From Desulfobulbus sp. (lineage in GTDB: Bacteria > Desulfobacterota > Desulfobulbia > Desulfobulbales > Desulfobulbaceae), in contig JBMNKV010000001.1 of assembly GCA_050952385.1 (NCBI GenBank), positions 1,378,877 to 1,442,876 on the forward strand: a stretch of DNA of 64,000 nt, read 5' to 3'. A program made the translations under genes and the position numbers. Position 1 is the stretch's first letter, and each line of letters opens with the position of its first letter. Below are positions 3,583 through 19,037 of the stretch, piece by piece. The notes beneath the pieces were generated by a model, which saw only the letters and a program-made list of their open reading frames with translations, had not been told where the DNA came from and ran no database searches.

Positions 3583-3825
3583 ATGCAACGTCTTTTCAGC
3601 ACCCTGTCCGCAGCAGAACAGCGCCACGAGGTACGCCGTCGCTTCCACTTGCAGGAAGGCGTCGGCTGGCACAGTGGGGAGGGCGTCTTTGTCGGCACAA
3701 CCGAGGAAGATGTAATCGCCGCCCTGATCGATCTGGAGGAGGCGGAAATCAACGCCATAGGCGACTGCATGGGCGGCTGCCCCATGATCCAGCCGAAGCT
3801 GGAGGATTTTGTCAGAAAAGCATGA
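3583..3825 (+). CDS. Hypothetical small protein (80 aa), no recognised family
   Basis: The ATG is preceded by GGAGAG about 6 nt upstream. The composition is acidic and not the Arg/Gly/Pro-rich type of shadow ORFs. No motif was recognised. Confidence 0.45.
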   Translation: MQRLFSTLSAAEQRHEVRRRFHLQEGVGWHSGEGVFVGTTEEDVIAALIDLEEAEINAIGDCMGGCPMIQPKLEDFVRKA

Positions 3826-4153
3826 GGACTACTGCATCACGACAAGCCATGAGCGCCTGCGTACTGTACGGGTCCGATCACAGGGCAACAAAAGGAAAGC
3901 GGTTGACGAGGCGTGAAGGCATGCATACAGTGAACTTTCATAGCTCTGCGGCCCCTGGGACCAGTCCGGGACATGTCCCGTGCAACGAGACGTATTGTGC
4001 GCATCGGTCGCCGTGCTTCCTGATTCAGGAAGGCTGGATACAGAGTGCCGGCCCTCTCCTTGCCGCTGCATCTCGACTGAGGCAATCCATCCGCGTCAAA
4101 GCGGCTCCTCCTTCCTCTTCCGTTCCAACAATTCAACCAAAGGTCTAGGCAGT

Positions 4154-4435
4154 ATGATTGGTGAAGGCGTAAAATTGATGGTTCTGGGCATGGCAGTGGT
4201 GTTTGTTTTTTTGGTGTTCATGGTGCTCGTCATCCAACTGAACAGCATTGTGTTGAGCGGCTTCACCAAGAGGGAGATAGAGCTCGATGAAAAGCGTCTG
4301 GAAGAAAAACGGCTCCGGGCCATGAACCTGAAAAGCAAATCCGGCACAGAAGAGCGTCAGCGCCTGATCGCGGTGATGGCGGCAGCCATTGCCGCGCATC
4401 GGGCCAGGAAGGCAGCAGAACGCCGTACGGCATAA
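4154..4435 (+). CDS. OadG/GcdD/MmdD-family membrane anchor subunit of a Na+-translocating biotin-dependent decarboxylase
   Basis: Internal ATG of ORF 3980..4435. The N-terminus MIGEGVKLMVLGMAVVFVFLVFMVLVIQ is typical of the OadG family. It is followed by a charged tail and sits next to the biotin carrier and beta subunit genes. Confidence 0.8.
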   Translation: MIGEGVKLMVLGMAVVFVFLVFMVLVIQLNSIVLSGFTKREIELDEKRLEEKRLRAMNLKSKSGTEERQRLIAVMAAAIAAHRARKAAERRTA

Positions 4436-4470
4436 ACAGTTCGTTATCCAGTAACAACAGGAGTATGATC

Positions 4471-4836
4471 ATGGGGAAAATTTCCCGCTACAAAGTTCAG
4501 GTTGATGGCATCACCTATCGGGTGAGTGTGGAAGACGAGAGCAGTGAAGTGACCGAGGTGCAACGGGTCTCCCCCGAGACCCCTGAGGCCTCCGATGCGG
4601 AGCAACCGCAGGTCGCCCGGGAACGGATCGAGGTGCGCACGCACCTTCCCGGCAACGTGTTCGATGTGACCTGCCAACCCGGCGACGAGGTGCAGCAGGG
4701 CGACACCCTGATGCTGATAGAAGCAATGAAGATGCAGTCGCCGGTCTACGCACCGACATCCGGAGTGGTGGAGAGCGTGGAAGTCAAGAAGGGGGATGTC
4801 GTCAAGTCCGGTCAACTTTTGGCCTACCTGATCTGA
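4471..4836 (+). CDS. Biotin carboxyl carrier (biotinyl domain) subunit of the decarboxylase
   Basis: Biotinylation motif EAMKMQ lies in a lipoyl/biotinyl fold-like C-terminus. A Pro/Glu-rich linker precedes it. AGGAG lies 7 nt upstream of the ATG at 4471; an alternative ATG is at 4465. Confidence 0.85.
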   Translation: MGKISRYKVQVDGITYRVSVEDESSEVTEVQRVSPETPEASDAEQPQVARERIEVRTHLPGNVFDVTCQPGDEVQQGDTLMLIEAMKMQSPVYAPTSGVVESVEVKKGDVVKSGQLLAYLI

Positions 4837-4857
4837 GTGTCCCCGACGAGGCTTGCA

Positions 4858-6153
4858 ATGAAGAAATCCCTGTTTGCCCTCTTTCTCCTCGTGCCCGTCC
4901 TGACGGCTCTGGGACTGCTCACAGGCGGCATGGCTTTTGCGGGCGTTCCCGCCAACGACTTGACGACCATACCGCCGATGGCCGAAATATTCCGCAGCTG
5001 CATCGACTCCACCGGCCTCATGCACGTGCTCTTTCCGCCCGGCGGCGAGTGGACCGACGGTATCGGCCGCCTGCTCATGATCGGCGTCGGCCTGGTGCTG
5101 ATCTACCTGGCCATTGTCCACGACTTTGAACCGCTCTTGCTGATCCCCATCGGCTTCGGCACGATTCTCACCAACATCCCCCTTGCCGGAATGAACGATC
5201 CGGGCGGCATCCTCCACCATATCTATGCGGTGGGAATCAAGTCCGGGGCCTTTCCGCTCATCATCTTCATGGGGATTGGCGCAATGACCGATTTCGGCCC
5301 CATGCTCGCCAACCCGAAAACCGCCCTTCTGGGCGGGGCCGCCCAGTTCGGCATCTTTTCCACCCTGCTGGGCGCCCTTGCGCTCTCCCATTTTGTGCCC
5401 GGCATCAACTTCGACCTGAGGGAGGCGGCCGCCATCGGCATCATCGGCGGCGCGGACGGGCCCACAGCCATTTTCCTTTCCAGCCAGCTCGCCCCGCACC
5501 TCCTCGGGTCGATCGCGGTGGCGGCCTACTCCTACATGGCGCTGGTCCCCCTCATTCAGCCGCCCATCATGCGGGCGCTGACCACCAAAGCGGAACGCTG
5601 CATCCGCATGGAGCAGATGCGCCAAGTGGGCAAGGCCGAAAAAATCGTCTTTCCCCTGGTGGTGGTGGCCCTTTGCGCCGCCCTCCTGCCTTCGGCCGCG
5701 CCGCTCATCGGCTTTTTCATGTTCGGCAACCTGATGCGGGAATGCGGGGTGGTGAACCGGTTATCCGATACGGCCCAGAACGCCCTGCTCAACATCGTCA
5801 CCATCTTTCTCGGTCTGGGCGTGGGCGCGCAGATGTCGGCCAAACAGTTTCTGTCGGCCGAGACGCTCGGCATCCTTTTCCTGGGGGTCATCGCCTTCGG
5901 TATCGGTACCGCCTCCGGCGTGCTCATGGCCAAGCTCATGAATCTGTTCCCCGGCGCGAAGATCAACCCGCTGATCGGGTCCGCCGGTGTTTCCGCCGTC
6001 CCCATGGCGGCCCGGGTCAGCCACAAGGAAGGCATGGAGGCCGATCCGAGCAACATGCTGCTCATGCACGCCATGGGCCCCAACGTCTCGGGCGTGATCG
6101 GTTCGGCGGTCGCGGCCGGCGTCCTGCTCACCCTCAAGGGGTTCGGAGGATGA
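4858..6153 (+). CDS. Na+-translocating decarboxylase beta subunit (OadB/GcdB/MmdB family)
   Basis: Polytopic membrane protein with the family-typical block [40 protein letters not shown] lies 6 nt before the ATG at 4858. The ORF track starts at a GTG at 4837. Confidence 0.9.
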
Positions 6154-6229
6154 GCAGGGTGTACTGAACGATTCCGGGCCCGGCCTGGCTGGTCCCGGAA
6201 TCATGGATACTCTCGCAAGAAGGAGACCG

Positions 6230-6541
6230 ATGATGATTGTACGTGTAATCATGACCAGACAGATTGCCCGAAGGGGTCGCACCCTGGACACGTCGCTTTT
6301 GCCGATCCTCTCGGAAATGCTCATCGAACTGCGCAGCATGGCCAACCGTCAGCCGGGATATATTTCCGGCGAGACCCTGCGCAACGTCTACTCACCTGAA
6401 GAGTATGTCGTCATCAGTACCTGGCTGTCCTTCGAGGCCTGGGAGAACTGGTTTGCCAATGAGCGACGCGCCGAACTGGAAGGCAAGATCGACGCCATGC
6501 TCGGGTCGCCGACCACCTACAAGATTTACGAGTACTACTGA
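6230..6541 (+). CDS. Antibiotic-biosynthesis-monooxygenase (ABM) domain protein
   Basis: About 100 aa with the ABM-like pattern (MIVRVIMTR...GYISGETLRNV...VVISTWLSFEAWENW). AAGGAG lies upstream of the tandem ATGs at 6230/6233. Confidence 0.7.
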   Translation: MMIVRVIMTRQIARRGRTLDTSLLPILSEMLIELRSMANRQPGYISGETLRNVYSPEEYVVISTWLSFEAWENWFANERRAELEGKIDAMLGSPTTYKIYEYY

Positions 6542-6618
6542 GCCGCCGTTCCCGACGGTCGACAGGCAAGCGAAAAGCAGCCGGCAGCGCAACCCGGACA
6601 GTCGGAGCCCCAAAAAGG

Positions 6619-6646
6619 AAGCCCCGCCGAAGAAGGGGCGGGGCTT
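6619..6646. terminator. GC-rich hairpin downstream of the ABM gene (terminator-like; the T-run is on the opposite strand only)
   Basis: aagccccgcc / ggcggggctt form a 10-bp stem with an 8-nt loop. Confidence 0.45.
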
Positions 6647-6832
6647 GATCAAGGAGAAAAGGAGAAGCGCTCTGTCGCAAGGGAGCGTATCTCTATTGTA
6701 CGCCCGGGGAGGATTCTGTCAAACCCGGGAGAAAAAAAGTGCCGGCCGCGCTTGTCTTTTTCCCGCTCCGCCGTCAACCGCGACAAGGAGGCGGACAGGG
6801 TGAACACGTCCCAAAATCGGCCGGATCACAGA

Positions 6833-6857
6833 AGGCCTGCCTGCACCAGGCTTTTTT
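6833..6857 (+). terminator. Intrinsic-terminator-like hairpin plus T-run about 50 nt upstream of pyrF (possible leader attenuator)
   Basis: aggcctg-cctgcac-caggctt forms a 7-bp stem (one G.U pair), followed by a T-run. Confidence 0.4.
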
Positions 6858-6908
6858 CGTTTGCAGCTCTGCGTCCAATCCATCTCTCACCTTGCACACA
6901 GGCCTCCC

Positions 6909-7640
6909 ATGCACACGCCTCCGCTTGATGAACGCATTATTTTCGCCCTTGATTTCTCCGACCCCGCGACAGCACAACAGTGGGTAAAAAAACTGGACAA
7001 CAAGATCCGGTTTTTCAAGGTCGGTCTCCAGCTGTTTCTTGCCGGATGGTGGCCGGTCATCGAATTCATCGCCAACCGGGGCAACAAGGTCATGGTGGAT
7101 CTCAAGTTTTTCGATATCCCCGAGACCGTTGGCCTGGCCGTGCAGCAACTGCACAACCGGAACGTCACCTTTGCCACCATCCATGGCAACGACCCCATTA
7201 TCCGGGCAGCGGTCCAGCATAAAAAAGATCTGCAACTGCTTGCCGTCACGGTGCTGACCAGTTTTGACCAGTCCGACCTGCACGCCATGGGCCTTGCCGG
7301 CACGGTCGAGGACCTGGTCTTGCTGCGGGCCCGGAAGGCCATCGAACTGGGATGCGACGGCGTGGTCTCCTCGGCGCGGGAGGCCGGTGTCCTGCGTGCC
7401 GATATCCGCCGCAGCTTTCTGGTGGTGACCCCCGGCATCCGTCCCGGCATCAATCAGGACATCATCCGACACGACGACCAGAAACGTATCGCCACCGCCC
7501 GCCAGGCCATCCTCAACGGGGCGGATCATGTGGTCATCGGTCGACCGATCAGCACCGCCGCCGACCCACTCGCCACGGTCGAACTCCTGCAACAGGAAAT
7601 CAGCGCAGCCCTGGCCGAACGCCGCACCCGGCATCCCTAA
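6909..7640 (+). CDS. pyrF: Orotidine 5'-phosphate decarboxylase
   Basis: Family signatures IIFALDF, FFKVG, VMVDLKFFDIPETV, and a C-terminal ...DHVVIGRPI. Confidence 0.9.
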   Translation: MHTPPLDERIIFALDFSDPATAQQWVKKLDNKIRFFKVGLQLFLAGWWPVIEFIANRGNKVMVDLKFFDIPETVGLAVQQLHNRNVTFATIHGNDPIIRAAVQHKKDLQLLAVTVLTSFDQSDLHAMGLAGTVEDLVLLRARKAIELGCDGVVSSAREAGVLRADIRRSFLVVTPGIRPGINQDIIRHDDQKRIATARQAILNGADHVVIGRPISTAADPLATVELLQQEISAALAERRTRHP

Positions 7641-7729
7641 ACGGACCGGCGCGTCATCCGGATACGCCGGCCCGCCTTCTTCATCGGAAATCCGCCCGGA
7701 TAGAAAGAAAACCGGGGCATGTTTTCGTT

Positions 7730-7758
7730 TTGACGAACCCCGCCACCGCTGCTAGCAT
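7730..7758 (+). promoter_or_regulatory. Candidate sigma70-type promoter for the 7874-13375 operon
   Basis: TTGACG - 17 nt - TAGCAT. An 8-bp-stem hairpin (cggtctcc/ggagaccg, 7767..7795) follows, right at the expected transcript 5' end. Confidence 0.4.
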
Positions 7759-7873
7759 ACAGAGAGCGGTCTCCTGAAAACCCTGGTGGAGACCGTCAGC
7801 AAACCCGTCAAGACCCCGGTTCCGGCAATCCCCGCACCCACGATACGAACCGGAAAACACAAAGGAGACATCC

Positions 7874-8245
7874 ATGAACGTCGGAGCCCTCTTCGATTCC
7901 ATCCTGGCAAAATGCGGTGCCCTGGCCGGAAAAATCGGCGCACTGCTGGACAGTACCGGTCTGCCGGAACAGATTCAGCAGGTTGATGCGGCCGGACTCT
8001 TTTCCAACCCCTGGTTCCTGATTCCCTTCATCGGCCTCGTCGGCTATATGCTGTACAAGAAGGCGATCCACGATCTGTTGATCATGGCCATACTCGGCAT
8101 GGTCTGGTATGCCACGGGCACGGATTACATGCAAACCCTGGTGATCGGCGACGAACTGCAACTCAACAAGGTCCTTCCGGTGATTCTGGGCGGCGTCGGC
8201 GCCCTGGCAGCCATCGTCTTCCTGCTGATGGGCCGTTCCGAATGA
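7874..8245 (+). CDS. Small integral membrane protein (about 3 TM segments), unknown family
   Basis: AGGAG lies 6 nt upstream of the ATG. Hydrophobic segments include WFLIPFIGLVGYMLY, LLIMAILGMVWYA and VLPVILGGVGALAAIVFLLM. Confidence 0.6.
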   Translation: MNVGALFDSILAKCGALAGKIGALLDSTGLPEQIQQVDAAGLFSNPWFLIPFIGLVGYMLYKKAIHDLLIMAILGMVWYATGTDYMQTLVIGDELQLNKVLPVILGGVGALAAIVFLLMGRSE

Positions 8246-8257
8246 GCTGATATCGCC

Positions 8258-9382
8258 ATGCTGCCCTTTCCCCCGAAAAATACGAACAAAAGCAGTCCGA
8301 ACGAGAACCCCTCCTTCCGGGATTCGATTTTTATCGTGCTGGAGGAAGAGGACTGTCCGCTTTACAATGTCGACGAGGAGTTCAATATTGCCGGCGGCAT
8401 CCTGACCCTGCCCGAAGGCAAGGAAACCTGCCTGACCCTCACCCGGGAGCTGATCAACCTGGCGACCGGGGAACAGAAGATGGAACACCTGTCTCCCATC
8501 GGCGCGCCCAAGGCCAAGTTCGAGTGCGGCGGCTGCGACAGCGGGGTTCTCCGGTTTGCCCATAAAAAAGACAAAACCTTCAGCACCTTGCAGATGAAGA
8601 TGCTGGCCGACGCCGAACAGCGCGCCCAGTTGCGGGAACTGGACAAGTTCCATCCCGTTCTTCGGCAGATGGAACTGTTCGAGCCGCTTTCCGACAGTAA
8701 TCTCTACGAGCTGTCCCGCCAGCTCGAGGTCAAACATTATCCGGCCAACAAGGTTATCCTCAACCAGGGCGATCCGGGCACGCGCCTGTACATCATCCTC
8801 AGCGGCCGGGTGGCGGTGGTCGGCGCCAATCACAAGGTCCTGGCCGAGATGGGCCCCGGCGACATCTTCGGCGAAATGAGCCTGCTCTCCGGAGAAAGCG
8901 TGGCCACCTCCATCTACTCACGCGATCGTTCCGTTCTCGCCACCTTGTCCAGCAAGAACTTCAAACATATCCTCGCCCGATTCCCGGTCTTGCAGGTGTA
9001 CCTCTACCGCCTGCTGGTGGAACGCTCCCAGGCCAACAGCCTGCGCGCAGGCACCATCAGCTCCGGTATGAGCGGCAGACTGGAAGAGGTCAACCCGGTC
9101 GAGTTGTTTCAAATGCTCAATTCCGGCCAGAAATCGGGAACCATCAGCCTCTCCTTTGACGACGGCAAGGCCCAGGTGATCTTTCATGAAGGTGAAGTGG
9201 TGCGGGCCGGGTATCGCAACCTGGTCGACAAAGACGCCCTGTTCGCCATCCTGGGCCGCGGCAAAGGGGAATTCACCTACACCACCGGCATCAACGAGGA
9301 AGATCAGGCCCGACCGCCGCTCGGCGGCTTCATGGCCCTGGTCATGGAGGGCATGCGCCTGATGGACGAACGCGCCGCCTGA
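8258..9382 (+). CDS. Cyclic-nucleotide-binding domain protein with C-terminal DUF4388 (PatA-N-like) domain and an unassigned roughly 120-aa N-terminal region
   Basis: cNMP-binding pattern (LFEPLSD...VILNQGDPGTRLYIILSGRV...GPGDIFGEMSLLSGE). DUF4388-like pattern (VNPVELFQMLNSGQKSGTISLSFDDGKAQVIFHEGEVVRA...GKGEFTY). The N-terminal region contains a CGGC pair. Confidence 0.8.
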   Translation: MLPFPPKNTNKSSPNENPSFRDSIFIVLEEEDCPLYNVDEEFNIAGGILTLPEGKETCLTLTRELINLATGEQKMEHLSPIGAPKAKFECGGCDSGVLRFAHKKDKTFSTLQMKMLADAEQRAQLRELDKFHPVLRQMELFEPLSDSNLYELSRQLEVKHYPANKVILNQGDPGTRLYIILSGRVAVVGANHKVLAEMGPGDIFGEMSLLSGESVATSIYSRDRSVLATLSSKNFKHILARFPVLQVYLYRLLVERSQANSLRAGTISSGMSGRLEEVNPVELFQMLNSGQKSGTISLSFDDGKAQVIFHEGEVVRAGYRNLVDKDALFAILGRGKGEFTYTTGINEEDQARPPLGGFMALVMEGMRLMDERAA

Positions 9383-9487
9383 GCTCCGCCGCCCTTGTAA
9401 AAAAAACCACCCGGCACAATAAATGCATTAGTCTTACTGTCCCCTGTACGCAGTCATCTGTCTGCCCAAAAAACAACCCGAGGTACC

Positions 9488-12400
9488 GTGACCCTGCCTG
9501 TCGACCGCTCATCACGCGTTCAGACCACTCCCGCCACTCCTGCCCCCTCTGCCGGGGCGGGAGCGAGCGGTTTTGACGCGTCGCTCATTCTGGAGCAGGC
9601 AGACACCCTGCTCCGGTCGACTCACCAGTATGGTCTGTGGCGACACATTCGCCAAAAAGATGCCGCCAAATCCTTGACTATTGCCAGGCTGGTCGTGGAA
9701 CGGAACCAGCTTCTGCACAAGCTGCAACGCGACAAGTCACCGAATTGGCGTGAATTCGACCGCCTGACCCGCGAAATCCTCGGCAACGGCATCATGCTGC
9801 CCACCTCCCGCCAGCTCGCCCCTGCCAAAACATCGTCTTCCGCCCCTGTCCAGCTCGAACTCCCGTTGCTGCCGCCGCCAGCAGCGGGCCCGCCGCCGGC
9901 TGCCCCTGCCCCCTCCGCTGCCGAACCTCCATCCGCGGATATCGACAGCAATGAGGCAGCGGCCGAGCCCGACAGCACCGACGAGCCGAACGCGCCTTCC
10001 GGTCCGGCCAGGGAACTGCTCCACGAAGACAACGTGCTCATCCTCGGGGCCTCCTGTCCGCAGATCGGTCTGCGACAAGACGTTCTCGGCTACAGCGACG
10101 GTCAGCGCACCCTGCTCCCCCTGGGCGGCTTTGCCCAGGCCCTGGATTTCCCCATCGAAGTCGATCCGGCCAAGGGGACGGCCCAGGGCTGGTTCATCAG
10201 CGAGAACCGGACCATCAGCGTGGATGCGGCCCGGAAAACGATCAGGGTCGACGGCACAACCATCCCCTGGGACGACAGCCTCATTGCCGTGGGGGAAGAC
10301 GACATCTATGTCGACTCCCGCCTCTTGAGCCGCATGCTCCCCCTGGATCTGGCGACAGATCCCGGCGAAATGAGCCTGGCCCTGCACCCCCGGGAGATAC
10401 TGCCCCTGCAGGCCCAACTGGAGCGCGAACAGCGACGCAAGGGGCTTTCCATGGACCGGGAAAACATGGAACCGCGGTATCCGGTGGAAACGCCTCCCTT
10501 CAGGGCGGCCTCCTTTCCGGTCATGGATGTGAACCTGAACTCGCGGGTCAACAAATCGGCAGCCGGAAAAAGCACCCTGCACAGCTCGTATTCGGTGCTG
10601 GCCCAGGGCGATCTGGCCTACATGGGATCGAACCTGTTTGTCGCGGGCCAGGAGGACGACCCGCTGGACAACATCCGCCTGACTCTGAAGCGCACCGATC
10701 CCGGGGCGGGCCTGCTCGGCGCCATGAAGGCCCGGACGCTTGAGCTGGGCGATGTCTCGCCGGTGAGATTGCCCGTTCTCGGCACATCCTCCCGGGAACG
10801 CGGGGTGATGGTTTCCAATCAGAGCCTGCAGAATCGTCAGGATTTTGACACCACCCGGTTCGAAGGCAATGCGCAACCCGGCTGGGATGTGGAGCTCTAC
10901 CGCAACAACAGCCTGCTCCAGTCGACGCGGATTGGCGGCGACGGCCGCTACCTGTTCGAGAACATCCCGGTCTATTTTGGACCCAACCGGTTCGAAATCG
11001 TGGCCCACGGCCCCCAGGGCCAGCGCCGGGTGCTGGACACCCGCAATCTCAACATCGGCTCCGAGATGCTGAAAAAGGGCGAGATGGAATACGCCCTTTC
11101 CGCCACCCAGCGCCAGACCTCCCTGGTTGGCGAGCAACAGATCGCGCGATCCACGGGAACCGGCCCCCGGCTCAGCGGGCAGGTCGCCTATGGACTCAGC
11201 AACCGGCTGTCCGCCACGGCAGGCGCCGCATCGGTGGAGTTCGAAGGTGAACGCCACAACTACCTGCAGGCCGGGCTCAACCACAGCCTGTCGTCGCTCT
11301 ATACCAGCGCCAATGTCGTCAGCGACAGCACGGGCGGCTCCGCCCTCTCGCTCCAGGCCCAGGGCCGTGTCGGCGCGTTCAACCTCAGCGGCAAACACGA
11401 AATCTTTTCGGATTTCATCGAGGAGGCCAACCCAACCTCCACTCTGGAAGAACGCACCACCCTGGCGCTCAGCGGGCGAACGAAAAAAATCCTGGGCCTG
11501 CCGGCCCTCTCCTACAGCCTGTCGCGCAGTGAAAGCAGCAAAGCCGATGGCGGCACATCCGGGCAAACCGGCCTCCGGCTTTCGACATCGATCAAAGGGG
11601 TCCACCTCGCCAACCAGCTCTACTGGCGGGATAACCAGTCGATATCCCGGGATCAGCACGACGGTGAATTTCGGGCCAGCGGCTCTCTGGGCAGCAGCCG
11701 AATCGTCGCGGGAATAGAGTACGACATCGACGGCAGCGGCGGCATCACCCGCTACCAGCTGGACGGCAGCATGCCGCTGACCGGCGATATCCGGGCCCGG
11801 GCCAGCCTCTTTCACGACACCGAATACGGCAACAGGAAAACCGAAGGCGAGGTCGGGCTCGATTTCGATCTGGGCAAGGTCATGTTTTCGCCCAGCCTGT
11901 CCTATGACTCGGAAGGCGCATTTCGCGCCTTTGCCGGGCTCTCCTTTTCCCTGGGCAAGGACCCGACCAGCGGCGATCTGGAGATGCGTTCGGAGCGACG
12001 CTCCGGCCAGGGCGCGGCCACCGCCCTTGTCTACCACGATGCCAACAACAACCAGGTGTTCGATCAGGACGACACGCCCATTCCCGATGCCAAGGTGGTC
12101 GTCCGCCAAAGCCGACAGAACGCCCGCACCGACGAGGACGGCCGCGTCCAGTTCACCAGCCTTGCGACAAACCGGCCGGTGGATGTGGAAATCGACCCGG
12201 ACTCCCTGGCCGACCCCTTCTGGGCGCCCACCACGCCGGGCCGCTCGATCCAGCCCCGGCCCGGTGTGGTGCAGCCCCTGCTCTTTCCGGTGGTGACCAC
12301 GGGCGAGGTGGACGGCAGCCTGCTCCTGTCGCCGGGAGACGGCACCCTGGAACCGCTGATCAATGTGCGCCTGGAGCTTCGGGACGAAAACGGGGAAACC

Positions 12401-13375
12401 GTGCACACCACCCGCTCCGAATACGACGGCTTCTTCCTTTTTTCCAAGGTCCGGCCGGGCGACTATACCCTGCACATCGCAAGCACTGATCCCAAGATTC
12501 AGGCCATGGCAGAGGGATGGAGCAAGCCGGTGCACATCGGCCTGGACGGCACCATCGCCCGCGGGAACGATGTGGTGCTCTCTCCCACCATGCCGCCGCA
12601 GACCCCGCTCCCTCCCGATCCGCTCGAATCCGTTCCGGCTCCAGCGGAAAGCGAAGAACCAATCCCGGCCGAGCCCGCGCCCATCCCGGAACCGGCCCCC
12701 CCGGTCGAACCCGTTCCAGCTCCAGAGGAAAGCGAAGAACCGGTCCCGGTCAAGCCCCAGGACACGTCCGACGCGCCCATCCCGGAACCGGCCCGCCCGG
12801 TCGAACCCGGTCCGGCCGCCAAGCCAGTCGATTCCCCGGCGCCTGCCCCAGCTCCCCGGGCAGCCGCCACCTTTACCATCCACCCGCTGAGCGTGCGCGA
12901 AAACGAACCAATGCCGCAGCAGGCTACGAAACAGGCTACAGAACCGACTCCCCGTCCGGTTGCGCCGCCGGCCTCCGCGCCGGCACAGCCGGAACCCGCA
13001 TCGCGGTTTTACGCAACCCAACTGGCCTCGTACACCTCGCCGGAACAGGCACAGGCCGGTCTCCGCATCCTGGCGGGGCGGCTCAAGGGGATCGTTGTTG
13101 CTGAAGATTTCCAGATCGTCCGGGCCGACCTGGGTGAGCGGGGCATCTTTTACCGGGTCGTTTACGGAAGGCATGCCGACCGGGCCCGGGCCGAGCAGTT
13201 TACCCGCCAGGTTCGGGCGCGCGGACAGGAGGCCCTGACCCTGCCTGTGCAACCCAGCGCGCTGCTGCCAGCAGATACGGCAATCACGGCAGCACCCACG
13301 CAGCCGCTGCAGCCGACCCGCCCCGCAGCCCGGCTCATTGCCCAGAAGTATGCGGCCATGCAGGGCCGCATCTGA
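9488..13375 (+). CDS. Giant (1295 aa) usher-like outer-membrane beta-barrel protein with CarboxypepD_reg-like domains, Pro-rich repeat linker and C-terminal SPOR (peptidoglycan-binding) domain
   Basis: GTG start with GAGG upstream. There is an usher plug-like block (GNAQPGWDVELYRNNSLLQSTRIGGDGRYLFENIPVYFGPNRFEIVAHGPQGQRRVL...LKKGEMEYALS). A long run of amphipathic beta-strand-like sequence follows. The SPOR-like end is FYATQLASYTSPEQAQAGL...GIFYRVVYGRHADRARAEQF. The function call is less certain than the CDS call. Confidence 0.7.
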   Translation: MTLPVDRSSRVQTTPATPAPSAGAGASGFDASLILEQADTLLRSTHQYGLWRHIRQKDAAKSLTIARLVVERNQLLHKLQRDKSPNWREFDRLTREILGNGIMLPTSRQLAPAKTSSSAPVQLELPLLPPPAAGPPPAAPAPSAAEPPSADIDSNEAAAEPDSTDEPNAPSGPARELLHEDNVLILGASCPQIGLRQDVLGYSDGQRTLLPLGGFAQALDFPIEVDPAKGTAQGWFISENRTISVDAARKTIRVDGTTIPWDDSLIAVGEDDIYVDSRLLSRMLPLDLATDPGEMSLALHPREILPLQAQLEREQRRKGLSMDRENMEPRYPVETPPFRAASFPVMDVNLNSRVNKSAAGKSTLHSSYSVLAQGDLAYMGSNLFVAGQEDDPLDNIRLTLKRTDPGAGLLGAMKARTLELGDVSPVRLPVLGTSSRERGVMVSNQSLQNRQDFDTTRFEGNAQPGWDVELYRNNSLLQSTRIGGDGRYLFENIPVYFGPNRFEIVAHGPQGQRRVLDTRNLNIGSEMLKKGEMEYALSATQRQTSLVGEQQIARSTGTGPRLSGQVAYGLSNRLSATAGAASVEFEGERHNYLQAGLNHSLSSLYTSANVVSDSTGGSALSLQAQGRVGAFNLSGKHEIFSDFIEEANPTSTLEERTTLALSGRTKKILGLPALSYSLSRSESSKADGGTSGQTGLRLSTSIKGVHLANQLYWRDNQSISRDQHDGEFRASGSLGSSRIVAGIEYDIDGSGGITRYQLDGSMPLTGDIRARASLFHDTEYGNRKTEGEVGLDFDLGKVMFSPSLSYDSEGAFRAFAGLSFSLGKDPTSGDLEMRSERRSGQGAATALVYHDANNNQVFDQDDTPIPDAKVVVRQSRQNARTDEDGRVQFTSLATNRPVDVEIDPDSLADPFWAPTTPGRSIQPRPGVVQPLLFPVVTTGEVDGSLLLSPGDGTLEPLINVRLELRDENGETVHTTRSEYDGFFLFSKVRPGDYTLHIASTDPKIQAMAEGWSKPVHIGLDGTIARGNDVVLSPTMPPQTPLPPDPLESVPAPAESEEPIPAEPAPIPEPAPPVEPVPAPEESEEPVPVKPQDTSDAPIPEPARPVEPGPAAKPVDSPAPAPAPRAAATFTIHPLSVRENEPMPQQATKQATEPTPRPVAPPASAPAQPEPASRFYATQLASYTSPEQAQAGLRILAGRLKGIVVAEDFQIVRADLGERGIFYRVVYGRHADRARAEQFTRQVRARGQEALTLPVQPSALLPADTAITAAPTQPLQPTRPAARLIAQKYAAMQGRI
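12626..12820 (+). repeat. In-frame tandem repeat (units of 81 and 96 bp plus a partial unit) encoding the Pro/Glu-rich linker of the usher-like protein
   Basis: Repeated DNA gaa(t/c)ccgttcc(g/a)gctccag(c/a)ggaaagcgaagaacc...cccatcccggaaccggccc(c/g)cccggtc. The peptide is E(S/P)VPAP(A/E)ESEEP...PIPEPA(P/R)PVEP. Confidence 0.8.
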
Positions 13376-13614
13376 AAGGAAAAACAGGCCAGGGCCCGGG
13401 CCAAGCAGTTCACCCGCCAGGTTCAGACGCACGGACAAGAGGTCCTGCCTGGGCAACCCGGCGCGCCGCTCCCAGCAGATACGGCAATCACGGCAGCGCA
13501 CGGCAGCACCCACGCAGCCGCTGCACAGCCGACCCGGCTCATTGCCCGGAGACGCATTGCCCGGAAGCAGGCAGCCATGCAGGGCCGCATCTGAAAGGAA
13601 AAGACAGGCCAGGG
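13182..13614 (+). repeat. Tandem direct duplication (about 210 + 222 bp) of the 3' end of the usher-like gene, including its stop codon and trailing sequence
   Basis: Copy A (13182-13391) and copy B (13392-13614) both start gggcccgggcc(g/a)agcagtt(t/c)acccgccaggtt. Both end gccatgcagggccgcatctgaaaggaaaa(a/g)acaggccaggg. Confidence 0.85.
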
Positions 13615-13698
13615 AAGATGCCCGCCGCAGGCACGGCCCACCAGGCTGTTGCGAAATGCGTCACGGCAGGCTGTGCAAAAAATCTCCAACACTGTCAC

Positions 13699-13758
13699 CC
13701 CCCGCGAAGGCGGGGGCCAGTTCTTCAAAAATCACTGGATTCCCGCCTGCGCGGGAAT
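13699..13758. repeat. Two REP-like GC-rich hairpins between convergent operons (likely bidirectional terminator/insulator)
   Basis: cccccgc-gaag-gcggggg (13699-13716) and attcccgc-ctgc-gcgggaat (13739-13758). The second gives the spurious peptides IPACAGMT / SRLRGNDE seen in the ORF track. Confidence 0.5.
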
Positions 13759-13944
13759 GACGAGACACAAACCGGGGCGCCACGCCTTGCGCGGCAACAA
13801 GATCAGAAGGAGATGGTCAAGCCGGCGCAAATGGGCCGCCACACGGCCGCATCACAGAGGGCGCACAGCCCACCAAAAAAAGAAGCCGGGACCGAGCGGT
13901 CACGGCGTGGAAATCGCATAAGCGCCAGTCATCCGGCGCGATCG

Positions 13945-14538
13945 TCACGGTGGTTCGGAATACTCCAACAGAACGGGTACCAAACCGGTATAGGTATCGG
14001 ACTTGGTTCCCACGGGCAGGTCGAGCTTGCCGCCGATAGCGATGGTCACCGAGTGGGTGTCGGATCCCTCACCAGTACCCGTGGACGGAACAAGGATATC
14101 ATGCAGGGAATTGTCCTGAATATCGGTCAGGGTTATCGTGGCCGTGGGATCAATCGTGCCGGTCATGATCGCGGTATCGGGCATGGAGGCCGTAACGGCA
14201 AAGGGGCCACTTGCCGTTATGGTGACCGCGCCCACGCTGCCCCCCGCAATGGGCACCCCTTTGGCCGAAAGCGGCTGGGCCCCCGTCCCCCCCTGTCGGG
14301 CATTCATGGTAACGCTGTCACCAAGGGGGTTCAACGGGATGGTGCCCAGGCTCATCGAGGCGCTGCTCTCTTCCTCCAGGGTGTTGACCACCTGGGCGTT
14401 GATGGGCACCTCCACATCGCCGGCCAGGGCGCGGGTCACGGCCAGGAAAAGAGCGCCAAGAGCGCCGCAAGCGAGCAGCCAGCCGGCCCGTTTGCAGCAT
14501 AAAATCCTCGATACCCCCCTCCCCTGTCGCACTTCCAT
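13945..14538 (-). CDS. DUF4402-type secreted pilin-like protein (paralog of 16049..16624)
   Basis: Signal-like segment GWLLACGALGALFLAVTRALA, then GDVEVPI...LGTIPLNPLGDSVTMN...ITASGPFAVT...IAIGGKLDLPVGTKSDTYTGLVPVLLEY, colinear with the major subunit. The start is uncertain. Confidence 0.7.
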   Translation of the reverse strand: MEVRQGRGVSRILCCKRAGWLLACGALGALFLAVTRALAGDVEVPINAQVVNTLEEESSASMSLGTIPLNPLGDSVTMNARQGGTGAQPLSAKGVPIAGGSVGAVTITASGPFAVTASMPDTAIMTGTIDPTATITLTDIQDNSLHDILVPSTGTGEGSDTHSVTIAIGGKLDLPVGTKSDTYTGLVPVLLEYSEPP

Positions 14539-14622
14539 CCTCCCGTTTCGTTCTCCGCCTCCGGAGAACCGCCTTGTCACCGCAACGGCTCCAACCCACC
14601 GTCCCTGCCGGGCAGGGCCGCC

Positions 14623-15531
14623 TCAGCGGACAGGAAAGTCGCGGCTGGTGGGCTCGCCCAGGTTGACCCGCTGATTGGTGCCTGTGCTGGGCCGAAACGT
14701 GGCCCGCAGCATGCCGCCACTCAACTCCTGGCGGGAAATGTCTTTCAGATTGAGCTGAACCTTCTTTTCCTTCAGGGGCATTTGCACGGTCACGCCCGGC
14801 AGATAGCCGACCTCGCGGGAGGCCCCGGGGTCGTTGGTGGGCACATAGTGCAGGCTCAGGTTGCCGAAACCGGAACCACCGCCCTCACGGTGCAAGACCA
14901 CCTCGGCTGCCAGACCGCTGGCTGCTTTCGGGGCCGGGACGAGCCGCACCCCCACGGGCTCGACCACGCCACGGACCCCGTGCTGAATCCAGATGGGGAA
15001 ACTGGAGTTCACCAAAAGCTCAATATCCATGGACACGCTCTTGTCCCCCGCCCCCTGTTGCCGCGCCGCGGCAGCCTTGGCCGCGGAGGGCTGGGGCCGC
15101 AGGATCATCCGGGTTCTATACTCGCCGGGGGCCAGGTTGGCGGGTTTGTTCACCATGAACTTCAGCACCTGACGGCCGCCCGGGGCAATGGTGGCCCGGC
15201 GGGGCGCGTACCGGATCATCTTGCGCACCCTCTGTTCCTCGGCACTCTCCTGCTCGGGCGCAAGCTCCTGCATCCGGCCATCCGGCCCGGTGCGCAGGGT
15301 CACGGTGTCGATCCTGTACGAAATCTCCTCCTGGGTGGGATTGTACACATAGACATCCACGTTCCGCTGGCGGTCGGGAAAGATGATCTGCATGGGGGTG
15401 ATCATCAGGGTTCTGGTTTTCATGGCGGCCAGGGCGGCATCCGCCGCAAGCAGCGTGCCGAACACGGCGGCCGCACCAAGACAGGAGCCACAGACAAGAC
15501 GCAGCGAGCGTTGCACAACGGACAGGAACAT
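14623..15531 (-). CDS. PapD-like periplasmic pilus chaperone (two Ig-like domains)
   Basis: Internal ATG at 15531 with GGAG upstream. Signal peptide ...AAVFGTLLAADAALA. N-domain pattern MITPMQIIFPDRQRNVDVYVYNP...IRYAPRRATIAPGGRQVLKFMV...GEYRTRMILRPQP resembles PapD/FimC N-domains. Confidence 0.7.
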   Translation of the reverse strand: MFLSVVQRSLRLVCGSCLGAAAVFGTLLAADAALAAMKTRTLMITPMQIIFPDRQRNVDVYVYNPTQEEISYRIDTVTLRTGPDGRMQELAPEQESAEEQRVRKMIRYAPRRATIAPGGRQVLKFMVNKPANLAPGEYRTRMILRPQPSAAKAAAARQQGAGDKSVSMDIELLVNSSFPIWIQHGVRGVVEPVGVRLVPAPKAASGLAAEVVLHREGGGSGFGNLSLHYVPTNDPGASREVGYLPGVTVQMPLKEKKVQLNLKDISRQELSGGMLRATFRPSTGTNQRVNLGEPTSRDFPVR

Positions 15532-15568
15532 GGATTTCTCCGGGAAAGAGGGATAAGGGGGATAACAA

Positions 15569-16042
15569 TCAGTAATCGAAATCAACCACGATCCGCACGG
15601 CGCCGCGGCAGGTGGCCGAGGATTCGCCGGGCGGAAGGACCAGACGGCCGCCGAACTGCACGGTGCGGGTCTCATTGGCCAGCAGGTCGAAACCGGTCTG
15701 GCCGTACTGGGAATGCGAGCGCATATCCACCAGGTACCGGGTGCGGCCGTTACAGTTAAGCTCGACCCGGTCCGGGTAGGTGATGCGCACATGGACCGGG
15801 TCAGCGGAGAAGACATTGATCTGGCCGCTCCCGCCGCCCCGCACCACCGAACGCCCGGCCACGGGCTGGGCCGCGCCCTTGCCGGCATCGATGACGATCG
15901 CATCGCCGACCGGGCTCAGGCCGATGCTGCCGAAATCAAGCGCACGGACCAGCGCCGCCTCCCCGGCCCCTGCCAGGGAGGCGGCTGCAAGCACAAGTGC
16001 GAGAGCGGCGATGGCTGCCCGCCCAGACCGCAACATGAGCAT
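15569..16042 (-). CDS. DUF4402-like secreted minor subunit
   Basis: Signal peptide MLMLRSGRAAIAALALVLAAASLAGA, then LDFGSIGLSPVGDAIVID...INVFSADPVHVRITYP...VQFGGRLVLP. Sits between the major subunit and the chaperone. Confidence 0.65.
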   Translation of the reverse strand: MLMLRSGRAAIAALALVLAAASLAGAGEAALVRALDFGSIGLSPVGDAIVIDAGKGAAQPVAGRSVVRGGGSGQINVFSADPVHVRITYPDRVELNCNGRTRYLVDMRSHSQYGQTGFDLLANETRTVQFGGRLVLPPGESSATCRGAVRIVVDFDY

Positions 16043-16048
16043 CAGGGC

Positions 16049-16624
16049 TCATTCATAGGTCAGGGTTGCCGTGACTGCACCTGCGTACGGACCCGCCACT
16101 GTATCCGAAGCCAATTCGAGCACGCCACCAACGTAAATGACTGCCTCAAACGTGCCATCATTATCAGCATCCGTGGCAGTAATCGCCGTGCTCCCCTGGG
16201 AGTTGGCCGTGATACCCGTCACGGTCAGCGTGTTGCCTGTGGCGTCGCCCGAGCCCTCCAGCGTTGCCTGCCCGCCGGTGCCCGCGTAGGCCGCGGTCAC
16301 TTTGAAGGGACCAGCGGCTGTCGCCGTGATGACGCCCGGGGCACTGTCGGAAATGACAACGCCTACATCCGATGACGCCTCGGCGCCAGCGCCAGTCGTG
16401 GCGTTGAGGGTGATTGTGTCGCCGAGCGGACTCAAGGGGATGGTGCCGAAGTTCAGAGTTTCGGCCTCCTCAACCAAACTCGTCTGCACGGTCACTTCAA
16501 TCGGCACATCCACATCGCCGGCCAGGGCATTCGCCGCGGGGGTCAGCACCAACCCGCAGAGTGCCGCGCCCATAACCCATTTGTTCCACATACCTTTTTT
16601 GTACTGCCGTGTTTTCATTGCCAT
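16049..16624 (-). CDS. DUF4402-type major pilin-like protein
   Basis: AGGAGG lies 8 nt upstream of the ATG at 16624. Signal peptide ...GAALCGLVLTPAANALA. Family-like blocks LNFGTIPLSPLGDTITLN, ITATAAGPFKVTAAY, YVGGVLELASDTVAGPYAGAVTATLTYE. First gene of the minus-strand operon. Confidence 0.8.
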   Translation of the reverse strand: MAMKTRQYKKGMWNKWVMGAALCGLVLTPAANALAGDVDVPIEVTVQTSLVEEAETLNFGTIPLSPLGDTITLNATTGAGAEASSDVGVVISDSAPGVITATAAGPFKVTAAYAGTGGQATLEGSGDATGNTLTVTGITANSQGSTAITATDADNDGTFEAVIYVGGVLELASDTVAGPYAGAVTATLTYE

Positions 16625-16731
16625 CCTTGGTTCCTCCTGATGTTGAGAGACTGACCCCCAATGGGTCGATACGGTAGATGACCGGGACTCTGCACAGCGC
16701 ATCCGCCCGATCCGGTTCCTGGCGGCCGGAG

Positions 16732-16985
16732 GGCGGAAAGGGATGAGCTTTTTTTGTTCCCTGTTTTCCGCTCGCCGGCTCCTGGGCAGCGCATGTGCCC
16801 AGGCTCCAGGACTCTTGTCGGCTGGAGGGCGGAAAGGGATAAGCTTTTTTTGTTTTTCCCTGTTTTTTCCGCTCTCCGGCTCCTGGGCAGCGCATGTGCC
16901 CGGGCTCCAGGACTCTTGTCGGCTGGAAGGCGGAAAGGGATAAGCTTTTTTTTGTTCCCTTTTTTTGCTCGCCGCCAGCCGGCCT
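16732..16985 (-). repeat. Non-coding tandem repeat, 2.5 copies of a 96-101 bp unit, in the leader of the major pilin gene
   Basis: Unit starts (ggcggaaaggga) are at 16732, 16828 and 16929. Each full unit carries the palindrome cctgggca-gcgcatg-tgccc(a/g)gg and homopolymer T/A runs of differing length. Confidence 0.9.
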
Positions 16986-17006
16986 TCGGCCTTTGCCCTC
17001 AAATAA

Positions 17007-17022
17007 AGCAGGTTTCGTGCCA
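17007..17022 (-). promoter_or_regulatory. Sigma54 (RpoN) -24/-12 promoter upstream of the pilin operon
   Basis: The minus strand reads TTGGCACG-AAAC-CTGCT, against the consensus YTGGCACG-N4-TTGCW. GG-N10-GC spacing is correct. An AT-rich tract lies further upstream (about 17095-17130). Confidence 0.6.
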
Positions 17023-17245
17023 ATGAAAATTATTTTGCCCTTTCTCTAACCCCGCCATATGACAGGGAAAAAAACAGGGAAAAAGAAGCCGGCCCCGCCA
17101 GATTTCATTTATGTAATTAAATGGGAAGACGAACTTACCATTTCGTTCTTCAGGGCCCAAGCTGGCAGGCCGGGCAAGGCTGCATGCAGGCGCATCCCGC
17201 CGGAATTCCGCCCATTTTCCACCCAATCCCGCCTCGATCGCCTGC

Positions 17246-17848
17246 TCACGCATCCCGCTCCAGCATCATCACCCCATAGGTGGCGCGCAGGTTGGCGGCC
17301 AGGTGGACAATGCGGCCGTGGGCGCCGTGGTGGGGCACGTCGATGGCCGCCTCCTTCACCGTGCGCATGCCGGAGGCATAGAGGAAGCGCTTGAAATCCT
17401 TGATGGAAATGATGCGGATATTGGGCGTGTCGTACCACTGATAGGGCAACTGGTCGGTGATGGGCGCGCGCCCGGTCACCAGCACCTGCAACCGGGCCTT
17501 CCAGTGACTGAAATTGGGGAAGCTGACAATCACCCGGCGGCTGATCCGCAACAGATCGACCAGGAGTTGTTGCGGGTCGTAAATCTGTTGCAGGGTCTGG
17601 CTGAGAATCACCACATCAAAACAGTGATCCGGATAGTCGAGCACCTCGAAACGAAAGTCGCCCTGGAGCACGGTCAGGCCCCGGGCAATGCACTGCACCA
17701 CCTTGGTTTCGGCCTGCTCGATGCCGGTGCCCCGGATCTGTTTTTCAGCCTGCAGATAGGCCAGCAGATCGCCGTTGCCGCAGCCCAGGTCCAGCACCCG
17801 CCAGCCCGGCTCGATCCACGAGGCAATGATCTTCAGGTCAAAACGCAT
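17246..17848 (-). CDS. metW: Methionine biosynthesis protein MetW
   Basis: MRFDLKIIASWIEPGWRVLDLGCGNGDLL... is the MetW pattern. Lies directly downstream of metX. Confidence 0.85.
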   Translation of the reverse strand: MRFDLKIIASWIEPGWRVLDLGCGNGDLLAYLQAEKQIRGTGIEQAETKVVQCIARGLTVLQGDFRFEVLDYPDHCFDVVILSQTLQQIYDPQQLLVDLLRISRRVIVSFPNFSHWKARLQVLVTGRAPITDQLPYQWYDTPNIRIISIKDFKRFLYASGMRTVKEAAIDVPHHGAHGRIVHLAANLRATYGVMMLERDA

Positions 17849-17864
17849 GGTTTCCGGATGCGCG

Positions 17865-19037
17865 CTAGTGGGCATGGGAGATCCGGTCAAGAAAGCCTCT
17901 GACCAGGCCGTCGAGCCGGTCATTGGGCAGAAGAAAGGCGTCGTGGCCCCAGCGGGCCTCGATCTCGCAGAAACTGATGTCGCAGCCGTTTTTTTTCAGG
18001 GCCGAGACAATATGTCTGGACTGATAGGTGGGGTAGAGCCAGTCCGAGGTAAAGGAAATCACGAGGAAACGGATACCGGCCAGCGCCTCGTTGACCAGCA
18101 GGTTGCCGCCCTTTCGTTCCAGGTCGAAGTAATCGGCGGCCTTGGTGATATAGAGCAGCGAGTTGGCGTCGAACCGGTCGACGAACTTCCGCCCCTGGTG
18201 GTGCAGGTAACTCTCGACCTGAAAATCTCCGGTAAAATCGAAGGACAGCGCGTCCCGGTGCAGGTGGCGGCCAAACTTCTCGCGCATGGACTCGTCGGAA
18301 AGATAGGTGACATGGCCGATCATCCGGGCCACGGCCAGGCCGTGGGCCGGGCCGGGCTGGTCATAGTAGTCGCCGTTGTTCCAGGCAGGGTCCGCCATGA
18401 TCGCCTGCCGGGCCACCTCGTTGAAGGCAATGGCCTGGGCCGAGTGGCGCGAGGTGGTGGCCAGGGGCACGGCGGAAACCACCATCTCCGGATAGTCGAC
18501 GCACCAGCGCAGCACCTGCATGCCGCCCACCGAACCGCCGATCAGCGAGAGCAGACGGGGAATGCCCAGATGATGGCGAACCAGCTCGCGCTGGGCCTGC
18601 ACCATGTCGCGAATGGTGACCATCGGAAAGGTTGTGCCGTAGGGTTTGCCGGTGGCCGGGTTGATCGACGAGGGCCCGGTGGAACCGGCACAGCCGCCCA
18701 GGATATTGGAGCAGATGACAAAGTACCGGTTGGTATCCACGGCCTTGCCCGGCCCGACCATGTTGTCCCACCAGCCGGGCCGGGTGTCGCTCTCGTGCAG
18801 GTACCCGGCCACGTGCGAGTCCCCGGAACAGGCATGGAGGATGAGGATGGCGTTGGAGCGGTCGGCATTGAGTTCGCCCAAGGTCTCGTAGGCCAGGGTG
18901 ATCGGCCCCAGGGAGGCCCCGCATTCCAGTTGCATGGCGTCGGGCGGTTCGGCAAAGGTGAAGTACCGGCGCTCCACCAGCAGGCGGGGCGTGGTGGTGG
19001 GGGCTGCGCTGTCCATATCGAGGCCGCTTTTATTCAA
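17865..19037 (-). CDS. metX: Homoserine O-acetyltransferase
   Basis: MetX pattern LECGASLGPITLAYETLGELNADRSNAILILHACSGDSHVAGY and nucleophile elbow GGSVGGMQ. Confidence 0.9.
   Translation of the reverse strand: MNKSGLDMDSAAPTTTPRLLVERRYFTFAEPPDAMQLECGASLGPITLAYETLGELNADRSNAILILHACSGDSHVAGYLHESDTRPGWWDNMVGPGKAVDTNRYFVICSNILGGCAGSTGPSSINPATGKPYGTTFPMVTIRDMVQAQRELVRHHLGIPRLLSLIGGSVGGMQVLRWCVDYPEMVVSAVPLATTSRHSAQAIAFNEVARQAIMADPAWNNGDYYDQPGPAHGLAVARMIGHVTYLSDESMREKFGRHLHRDALSFDFTGDFQVESYLHHQGRKFVDRFDANSLLYITKAADYFDLERKGGNLLVNEALAGIRFLVISFTSDWLYPTYQSRHIVSALKKNGCDISFCEIEARWGHDAFLLPNDRLDGLVRGFLDRISHAH

Follow-up and report, generated by a model that had tools for sequence, protein, structure and literature searches.

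The stretch of DNA analysed here (the window) spans 64 kilobases (kb) of a Desulfobulbus sp. genome (GCA_050952385.1, contig JBMNKV010000001.1), and between positions 7,730 and 17,022 it carries two convergent groups of genes. On the plus strand lie genes for a small membrane protein (7874-8245), a protein that combines a cyclic-nucleotide-binding (CNB) fold with a PatA_N domain (8258-9382) and a homologue of outer-membrane ushers (9488-13375). Facing them on the minus strand are three genes for DUF4402 proteins (13945-14538, 15569-16042 and 16049-16624) and one for a two-domain PapD-like periplasmic chaperone (14623-15531). An earlier note, made from the sequence alone, had listed these seven open reading frames (ORFs) with the housekeeping genes pyrF and metW as flanks; all seven are present at these coordinates and both flanking genes were found beside the locus. 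The combination of DUF4402 proteins, chaperone and usher occurs in a single copy in the window. Chaperone-usher (CU) pili are a main model for how proteins are secreted and fibres assembled across the outer membrane, and anti-adhesion drugs are aimed at them. Here, we read the locus, with a probability of about 80%, as a complete machine for CU assembly that belongs to a divergent and hitherto unclassified branch of the pathway.

The usher homologue, a protein of 1295 amino acids (aa), escapes the sequence models of its class. Pfam Usher, PapC_N and PapC_C have no match among the window proteins at E values up to 1, a PDB sequence search with the usher returned nothing significant, and NCBIfam gave chance-level matches only. 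What Pfam does assign to the protein is Cu_amine_oxidN1 and two domains of the CarboxypepD_reg/SdrD_B type. An AlphaFold2 model of residues 180-1040, based on an alignment of 81 sequences, reached a predicted local distance difference test score (pLDDT) of 91.6. When this model was searched against the PDB with Foldseek, the top 18 matches were all FimD or PapC (E 1.3e-29 to 1.3e-15, up to 926 columns), and the usher-barrel matches include the PapC/FimD translocation-domain structures 2vqi, 3ohn and 3fip. The next barrels, Occ porins, LptD and Fiu, follow at about 1e-6. Hence, we rejected the alternatives of an LptD-like barrel, a porin or a TonB receptor, for which the matches are some 20 orders of magnitude weaker than those to FimD and PapC. 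The DSSP list of the model runs through six strands, a six-strand plug and 18 further strands, giving 24 counted barrel elements, and then two beta-sandwich domains. This order of six strands, plug and 18 strands with C-terminal domains is the topology of PapC and FimD. A comparison with hhalign of a 42-sequence usher family against four E. coli ushers gave 95.4% (E 1.8e-8) over 503 columns that begin at the plug and reach the C-terminal domains; the run against FimD as a single sequence was uninformative (4%). The usher fold proposed in the earlier note is thus supported by both the model and the profile comparison.

Along the protein, an N-terminal extension with a conserved core at aa 28-105 (9569-9802), specific to Desulfobacterota and without a known domain, precedes the usher N-terminal domain at aa 180-301 (10025-10390), which is the region matched by Cu_amine_oxidN1 ('stalk'). 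The translocation barrel covers aa ~345-824 (10520-11959) and is interrupted between strands 6 and 7 by the plug-like six-strand insert at aa ~455-523 (10850-11056), which carries the family signature GWDVELY. Two C-terminal beta-sandwich domains of the CarboxypepD_reg/SdrD_B-like type follow at aa ~831-1031 (11978-12580), in the position of the usher domains CTD1 and CTD2. After a Pro-rich linker comes a probable SPOR peptidoglycan-binding domain at aa 1172-1248 (13001-13231), for which the Pfam match (PF05036; 19.1 bits, E 0.0017) is below the cut-off of 21. In the usher family a C-terminal SPOR domain is found among 12 of the 81 matches listed, an N-terminal AMIN domain in at least three members and a LysM domain in 1 of 42 (family P0028-P0093; loci L004 and L005). 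The usher had been described as about 50% larger than FimD or PapC and fused to SPOR: the length of 1295 aa holds and homologues do carry SPOR, although the domain is sub-threshold in this copy. The surplus consists of an N-terminal extension of ~180 aa, the Pro-rich linker and SPOR, whereas the core of ~860 aa is FimD-sized.

The chaperone, encoded on the minus strand at 14623-15531, has 302 aa and a signal peptide, and is identical over its full length to a public annotation from a Desulfobulbus sp. metagenome-assembled genome (MAG; P0001). By sequence it has no Pfam hit beyond a weak match to WxLIP_PGBD, but PapD_N is matched by 12 of its 15 close relatives (best 8e-6), with the Polaromonas orthologue above the cut-off. 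Searches of PDB sequences with the chaperone and with its profile gave nothing significant, and NCBIfam holds no model for either the chaperone or the DUF4402 subunits. An AlphaFold2 model from a 15-sequence alignment (pLDDT 81.5) was matched by Foldseek to the CU chaperones Caf1M, CsuC, CfaA, CupB2, DraB, FimC, PapD and EcpB across both domains (~270 columns, E 1e-8 to 1e-10), with Caf1M in second place and CsuC at ranks 3, 5, 8 and 10. With hhalign, an 86-sequence chaperone family aligned with four E. coli chaperones at 91.3% (E 9.6e-7, 188 columns). Significance was reached only with this four-sequence E. coli profile and the larger family alignment; against FimC alone the comparison was uninformative (9%). 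The chaperone assignment of the earlier note therefore agrees with the structural matches, with PapD_N in the relatives and with the profile alignment. The top Foldseek match of the model is WxLIP of Enterococcus faecium (9i25_C, E 7e-11), which likewise consists of two tandem Ig-like domains. We rejected WxLIP as a functional homologue and regard the likeness as one of fold, because WxLIP is a Gram-positive cell-wall protein without an usher partner, whereas the window chaperone belongs to an operon-type system with an usher homologue in didermic bacteria.

All three remaining minus-strand proteins exceed the gathering cut-off of 25.2 bits for Pfam DUF4402 (PF14352), namely the 191-aa product of 16049-16624 (35.6 bits), the 157-aa product of 15569-16042 (30.4 bits) and the 197-aa product of 13945-14538 (35.9 bits), and all three carry signal peptides. 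Every one of 11 aligned DUF4402 relatives matches the model at E values up to 10 (best 2.4e-28), and none of the 11 matches Pfam SCPU or Fimbrial even at that threshold, in line with the earlier claim that the subunits are DUF4402 rather than fimbrial or SCPU proteins. The gene at 16049-16624 has an AGGAGG ribosome-binding site upstream of its ATG, and its product is identical to a public 191-aa annotation; a word-indexed homologue search with it returned only itself. Its signal peptide ends in …ANALA before GDV, and the mature protein begins with a segment of alternating hydrophobic residues, GDVDVPIEVTVQTSL, that lies outside the Pfam domain. At the other end it closes with G-x-Y-x-G-x7-Y-E, an instance of the family motif G-x-Y-x-G-x7-[YF]-x, which ends precisely at the C-terminus.

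The subunits fall into two types. In the alignment, the product of 15569-16042 (type 'b') lacks the N-terminal segment of ~12-14 residues found in type 'a'. The same pattern recurs in the relatives, where the product of the first gene has a median of 12 residues more than that of the second between the signal peptide and a conserved FG motif (43 of 55 loci; Wilcoxon p = 1.6e-5). The third window protein (13945-14538), a type 'a' paralogue, shares 36% identity with the product of 16049-16624 and has a C-terminal tail of four residues (…EYSEPP). Of the loci examined in Desulfobulbales and Desulfobacterales, the window alone has a third DUF4402 copy; the Desulfobulbales loci (L001, L008/L028, L010 and L012-L014) have two DUF4402 genes each. 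We propose that 16049-16624 encodes the major subunit, and thus the candidate major pilin, and that 13945-14538 encodes a minor or alternative 'a'-type subunit. Judging from the sequences, the N-terminal segment of both type 'a' proteins would serve as donor strand. The type 'b' protein could accept a donor strand but would have none to donate, and since CU logic leaves only the distal end open to such a subunit, it is a candidate for the distal, tip or initiator position.

Relatives were collected with one peptide pattern, the usher signature GWDVELY; a scan in which each GTDB species was represented by one genome yielded 356 species-level usher relatives. Gene neighbourhoods were then counted, with local hidden Markov model searches, for the best 80 of these 356 loci. 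A chaperone gene is adjacent to the usher gene in 77 of the 80 loci and a DUF4402 gene in 73, with two or more DUF4402 genes in 63. The prevailing arrangement is a co-directional DUF4402-(DUF4402)-chaperone-usher operon (56/80), and the convergent layout is found in seven. The loci come from at least six phyla, and the synteny on which the earlier note had made its proposal depend is therefore present well beyond the Desulfobulbales. Carriers include Halomonas, Marinobacter, Massilia, Polaromonas, Pseudomonas tumuqii, Vibrio, Micavibrio and Rickettsiales, and further Acidobacteriota, Nitrospiraceae, Fibrobacteraceae and an Armatimonadota MAG. Two Desulfobulbus-type loci (L001 and L010) have the convergent layout of the window, Salinispirillum and Polaromonas have DUF4402-DUF4402-chaperone-usher, and another locus (L003) has a compact co-directional set of DUF4402, chaperone and usher genes beside parAB. 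An exhaustive search with the usher profile found 4,655 clusters at 50% identity (E <= 1e-30). Annotations in the usher family are limited to 'stalk', 'SPOR' or 'carboxypeptidase regulatory-like domain-containing' proteins, and the subunits are annotated as DUF4402. In one Desulfobulbus-type genome (L001, GCA_029267735.1) the usher at 11051-14249 is called as two genes of 587 and 438 aa, which points to either a frameshift in this genome or an error in its assembly.

In the order of events that we propose, the three DUF4402 proteins and the chaperone would be exported by Sec, as their visible signal peptides suggest, and the PapD-like chaperone would cap each subunit in the periplasm. Chaperone-subunit complexes would then dock on the usher, which in the high-confidence model has a barrel of 24 strand elements with a plug domain, preceded by an N-terminal domain and followed by two beta-sandwich domains. 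Donor-strand exchange would join the subunits and thread them to the surface. Through its Pro-rich linker and SPOR the usher would be anchored to peptidoglycan, a role that AMIN or LysM takes in relatives. The membrane protein and the CNB/PatA_N protein would be Desulfobulbus-specific accessories, probably regulatory and outside the conserved core.

Much of this is shared with known systems. The current scheme sorts CU systems into six clades and three groups, the alternative (alpha), the classical (the beta, gamma, kappa and pi clades) and the archaic (sigma), with the classical systems confined to beta/gamma-Proteobacteria (PMC9452303). With the classical Fim and Pap systems the DUF4402 system has in common a two-domain PapD-like chaperone, an usher with an N-terminal domain, 24 counted strand elements, a plug between strands 6 and 7 and a pair of beta-sandwiches at the C-terminus, subunits that have signal peptides and whose C-terminal strand motif has an aromatic residue in penultimate position, and the operon order pilin, chaperone, usher. 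It differs in that its parts are undetected by Pfam Usher, PapC_N, PapC_C and Fimbrial, its subunits are DUF4402, its usher N-terminal domain is matched by Cu_amine_oxidN1 and the C-terminal domains by CarboxypepD_reg/SdrD_B, and many of its ushers are fused to SPOR, AMIN or LysM. Furthermore, the window locus encodes no two-domain adhesin with a lectin domain, and the family extends over at least six phyla. Yersinia pestis has a minimal CU system, Caf1 (F1 antigen), that, like the window, combines single-domain subunits with a chaperone and an usher, and its chaperone Caf1M is the second-best match of the window chaperone. However, the Caf1 subunit and the Caf1A usher are classical (gamma3), and Caf1 has neither DUF4402 nor a peptidoglycan-binding fusion. 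In the literature searched, no paper mentions DUF4402 or describes ushers of this kind, and we found no already described system that matches.

Several observations weigh against a complete CU machine at this locus. A PDB search with the DUF4402 profile gave nothing significant and no solved relative, and the hhalign alignment in which the DUF4402 C-terminal motif and the C-terminal strand of Fim pilins, with its penultimate Tyr, lie in register is weak (32%, 31 columns). That the DUF4402 proteins adopt an incomplete-Ig pilin fold and assemble by donor-strand exchange into a surface fibre we infer from gene context and sequence motifs. Hence, of the full CU parts list claimed in the earlier note, the chaperone and the usher stand, and the pilin remains a prediction of context and motifs. 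At position 48 the chaperone has Gln (CAG, 15388-15390) where 84 of 86 relatives have Arg, at the position aligned with Arg8 of FimC and PapD. The codon is one base away from CGG, but the same protein is found on 8 public contigs and an assembly error is therefore probably not the cause. In classical CU systems Arg8 anchors the subunit C-terminus, so this chaperone copy may be impaired. Finally, no signal peptide was detected on the usher, either in the window or in any Desulfobacterota relative.

The altered chaperone residue and the signal-less usher could also be taken as signs that the system is decaying or silent in this genome and that the membrane-protein and CNB/PatA_N genes are unrelated neighbours. 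A remnant duplication of the usher 3' end downstream of the gene fits this picture, as does the absence of the CNB/PatA_N pair from D. alkaliphilus, from the Desulfobacterales loci and from all other phyla. We nevertheless consider decay unlikely. All seven ORFs are intact, and the order membrane protein, CNB/PatA_N, usher is kept in five genomes although the surrounding genes differ. The usher N-terminus itself is also conserved in form. The start used here is the first start codon following an in-frame stop, and the peak hydropathy in the first 250 aa is 1.2, whereas of four homologues scored from outside the Desulfobacterota three exceed 2.2. Residues 1-180 (9488-10024) contain a helical-looking region, FDASL..EQAD.LLRQTDQYAQWQ.LRQKND…SINWQ.FD.LT.QL.QAGI.LP, followed by a Pro/Ala/Ser-rich linker, and a profile of the extension has no PDB or Pfam match. 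All ushers examined from Desulfobulbales and Desulfobacterales have an extension of ~180 aa, which the ~890-aa homologues in other phyla, most of them with classical signal peptides, lack. This conservation argues for the signal-less extension being a selected feature rather than a product of decay.

A different objection concerns the place of the system among CU clades. It might be a member of the archaic (sigma) clade, with DUF4402 as a divergent SCPU pilin domain and a Csu-like way of working; Csu rods have a twin-hairpin 'clinch' (PMC9452303). With Csu of Acinetobacter baumannii (CsuA/B-A-B-C-D-E) it shares a broad environmental spread and several small subunit genes before chaperone and usher, as in csuA/B-A-B-C-D, and CsuC ranks high among the structural matches of the window chaperone. 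The spread beyond beta/gamma-Proteobacteria would also suit the archaic pili, which are the most diverse and widespread CU group (PMC9452303). However, the classical chaperones Caf1M, FimC and CupB2 match equally well as CsuC, the Csu subunits are SCPU whereas none of the 11 DUF4402 proteins matches SCPU or Fimbrial, and the locus lacks a two-domain tip adhesin of the CsuE kind. PF00577 recognises sigma ushers such as CsuD, whereas the DUF4402-system ushers lie outside this model, with a single faint match (E 0.03) among 42 family members. As judged by these models, the DUF4402 system is set apart from both the classical (Usher, Fimbrial) and the sigma (SCPU) groups, and we regard sigma membership as improbable. 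We hold it just as improbable that the usher-chaperone pair exports the DUF4402 proteins as a capsule-like or amorphous polymer, comparable to the Caf1/F1 antigen, or as surface oligomers, with no thin pilus formed. The rank of Caf1M among the chaperone matches, the lack of a two-domain lectin adhesin and the richness of the subunits in Thr, Ala and Gly are all compatible with such a product. Against it, the conserved pairing of a subunit with and a subunit without the N-terminal segment is in keeping with a polar fibre that has a defined distal subunit; and since polymers of the Caf1 type are likewise made by donor-strand exchange, the mechanism would be the same under either reading.

The preferred reading, a divergent CU machine, thus describes a large, widespread and apparently unstudied branch of the pathway that has gone unannotated. 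If the CU role is confirmed, DUF4402 gains a function and CU pili extend to anaerobic sulfate reducers, Acidobacteriota, Nitrospirota and Fibrobacterota, with culturable hosts in Halomonas, Marinobacter, Massilia and Vibrio. It would also raise the questions of why an usher is tethered to peptidoglycan and by which route a signal-less usher is exported. The accepted CU classification is built on ushers that PF00577 recognises. We put forward, as a tentative extension that is more doubtful than the main reading, that the DUF4402 systems form a seventh, deep-branching CU clade and that the Desulfobacterota ushers have a non-canonical route to the outer membrane or are controlled through their N-terminal domain. 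If true, this clade would span at least six phyla and number thousands of protein clusters, with ushers commonly bolted to peptidoglycan through SPOR, AMIN or LysM, and every usher-based census would have missed it because the Pfam Usher model is blind to its ushers. In Desulfobulbus, this route or control could then involve the adjacent CNB/PatA_N and membrane proteins.

These two plus-strand genes are separated by 13 nucleotides (nt). The first (7874-8245) encodes a membrane protein of 123 aa with three hydrophobic segments, and the second (8258-9382) a cytoplasmic protein of 374 aa with a four-Cys N-terminal region, a CNB fold and PatA_N/DUF4388, the latter two matched by Pfam cNMP_binding (3e-20, 72.3 bits) and DUF4388/PatA_N (3e-18). 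The earlier note had seen in it a cyclic-nucleotide sensor beside the usher; the CNB-fold domain is there, but the ligand is in question. Functional CNB domains have a phosphate-binding cassette with a conserved Arg (GE…R[ST]A). The cassette of the window protein, FGEMSLLSGESVATSI, lacks this Arg, and across five orthologues it reads FGEMSLLSGE[SP][VI][AT]TSI. With Val or Ile in place of the Arg in all five, it is doubtful that the domain binds cAMP or cGMP. Four conserved Cys in the N-terminal region of ~100 aa (CP[LI]YNV … C … FECGGC) suggest a metal or redox site. The CNB/PatA_N gene is directly upstream of the usher gene in five Desulfobulbus-type genomes only (the window, L001, L010, L012 and L013) and is always accompanied by the membrane-protein gene; besides the loci named above, the pair is absent from a Desulfobulbales MAG. 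We rejected the CNB/PatA_N gene as a core component, since it is missing from most loci, and class it as an accessory because it is confined to these five genomes, which narrows its role as a system part in the earlier note. In a second lineage, Salinispirillum sp. (L004), genes for a response regulator and an Hpt-REC-GGDEF protein (3630-5670) immediately precede the DUF4402 operon and share its orientation, which places a regulator of the nucleotide-second-messenger type beside a DUF4402 system there as well.

Upstream of the major-subunit gene, positions 16717-16974 hold three tandem repeats of ~100 nt each. Each repeat contains an A-tract and the palindrome TGGGCA-N7-TGCCCA (TGGGCAcatgcgcTGCCCA) and occurs nowhere else in the window, where the chance expectation is 0 matches; the repeats may be regulatory. 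Further upstream, ~400 nt from the ATG at 16624, the minus strand has a sigma-54-like -24/-12 motif, TGGCACGAAACCTGCT, at 17007-17022, which is one of two matches to a relaxed sigma-54 pattern in the 64 kb. D. alkaliphilus (L008) has a similar motif, TGGCACGCTGTCTGCT, ~450 nt upstream of the 5' end of its first DUF4402 ORF, and the motif was not found in 8 other loci checked. A sigma-54 promoter for the major-subunit gene is therefore a weak suggestion, kept as a lead because the motif is present in only 2 of 10 loci checked. An Rfam search of 6000-18500 (E-value mode, E <= 1) gave two matches, both far below the gathering scores. On one side the locus is flanked by pyrF (OMPdecase), an ABM-domain gene and OAD-beta, and on the other by metW, metX and an ABC-F gene. 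A second copy of the usher gene's 3' end, with its stop codon and the bases that follow (13310-13391), lies ~219 nt downstream at 13526-13610 between the convergent operons, and looks like a remnant tandem duplication.

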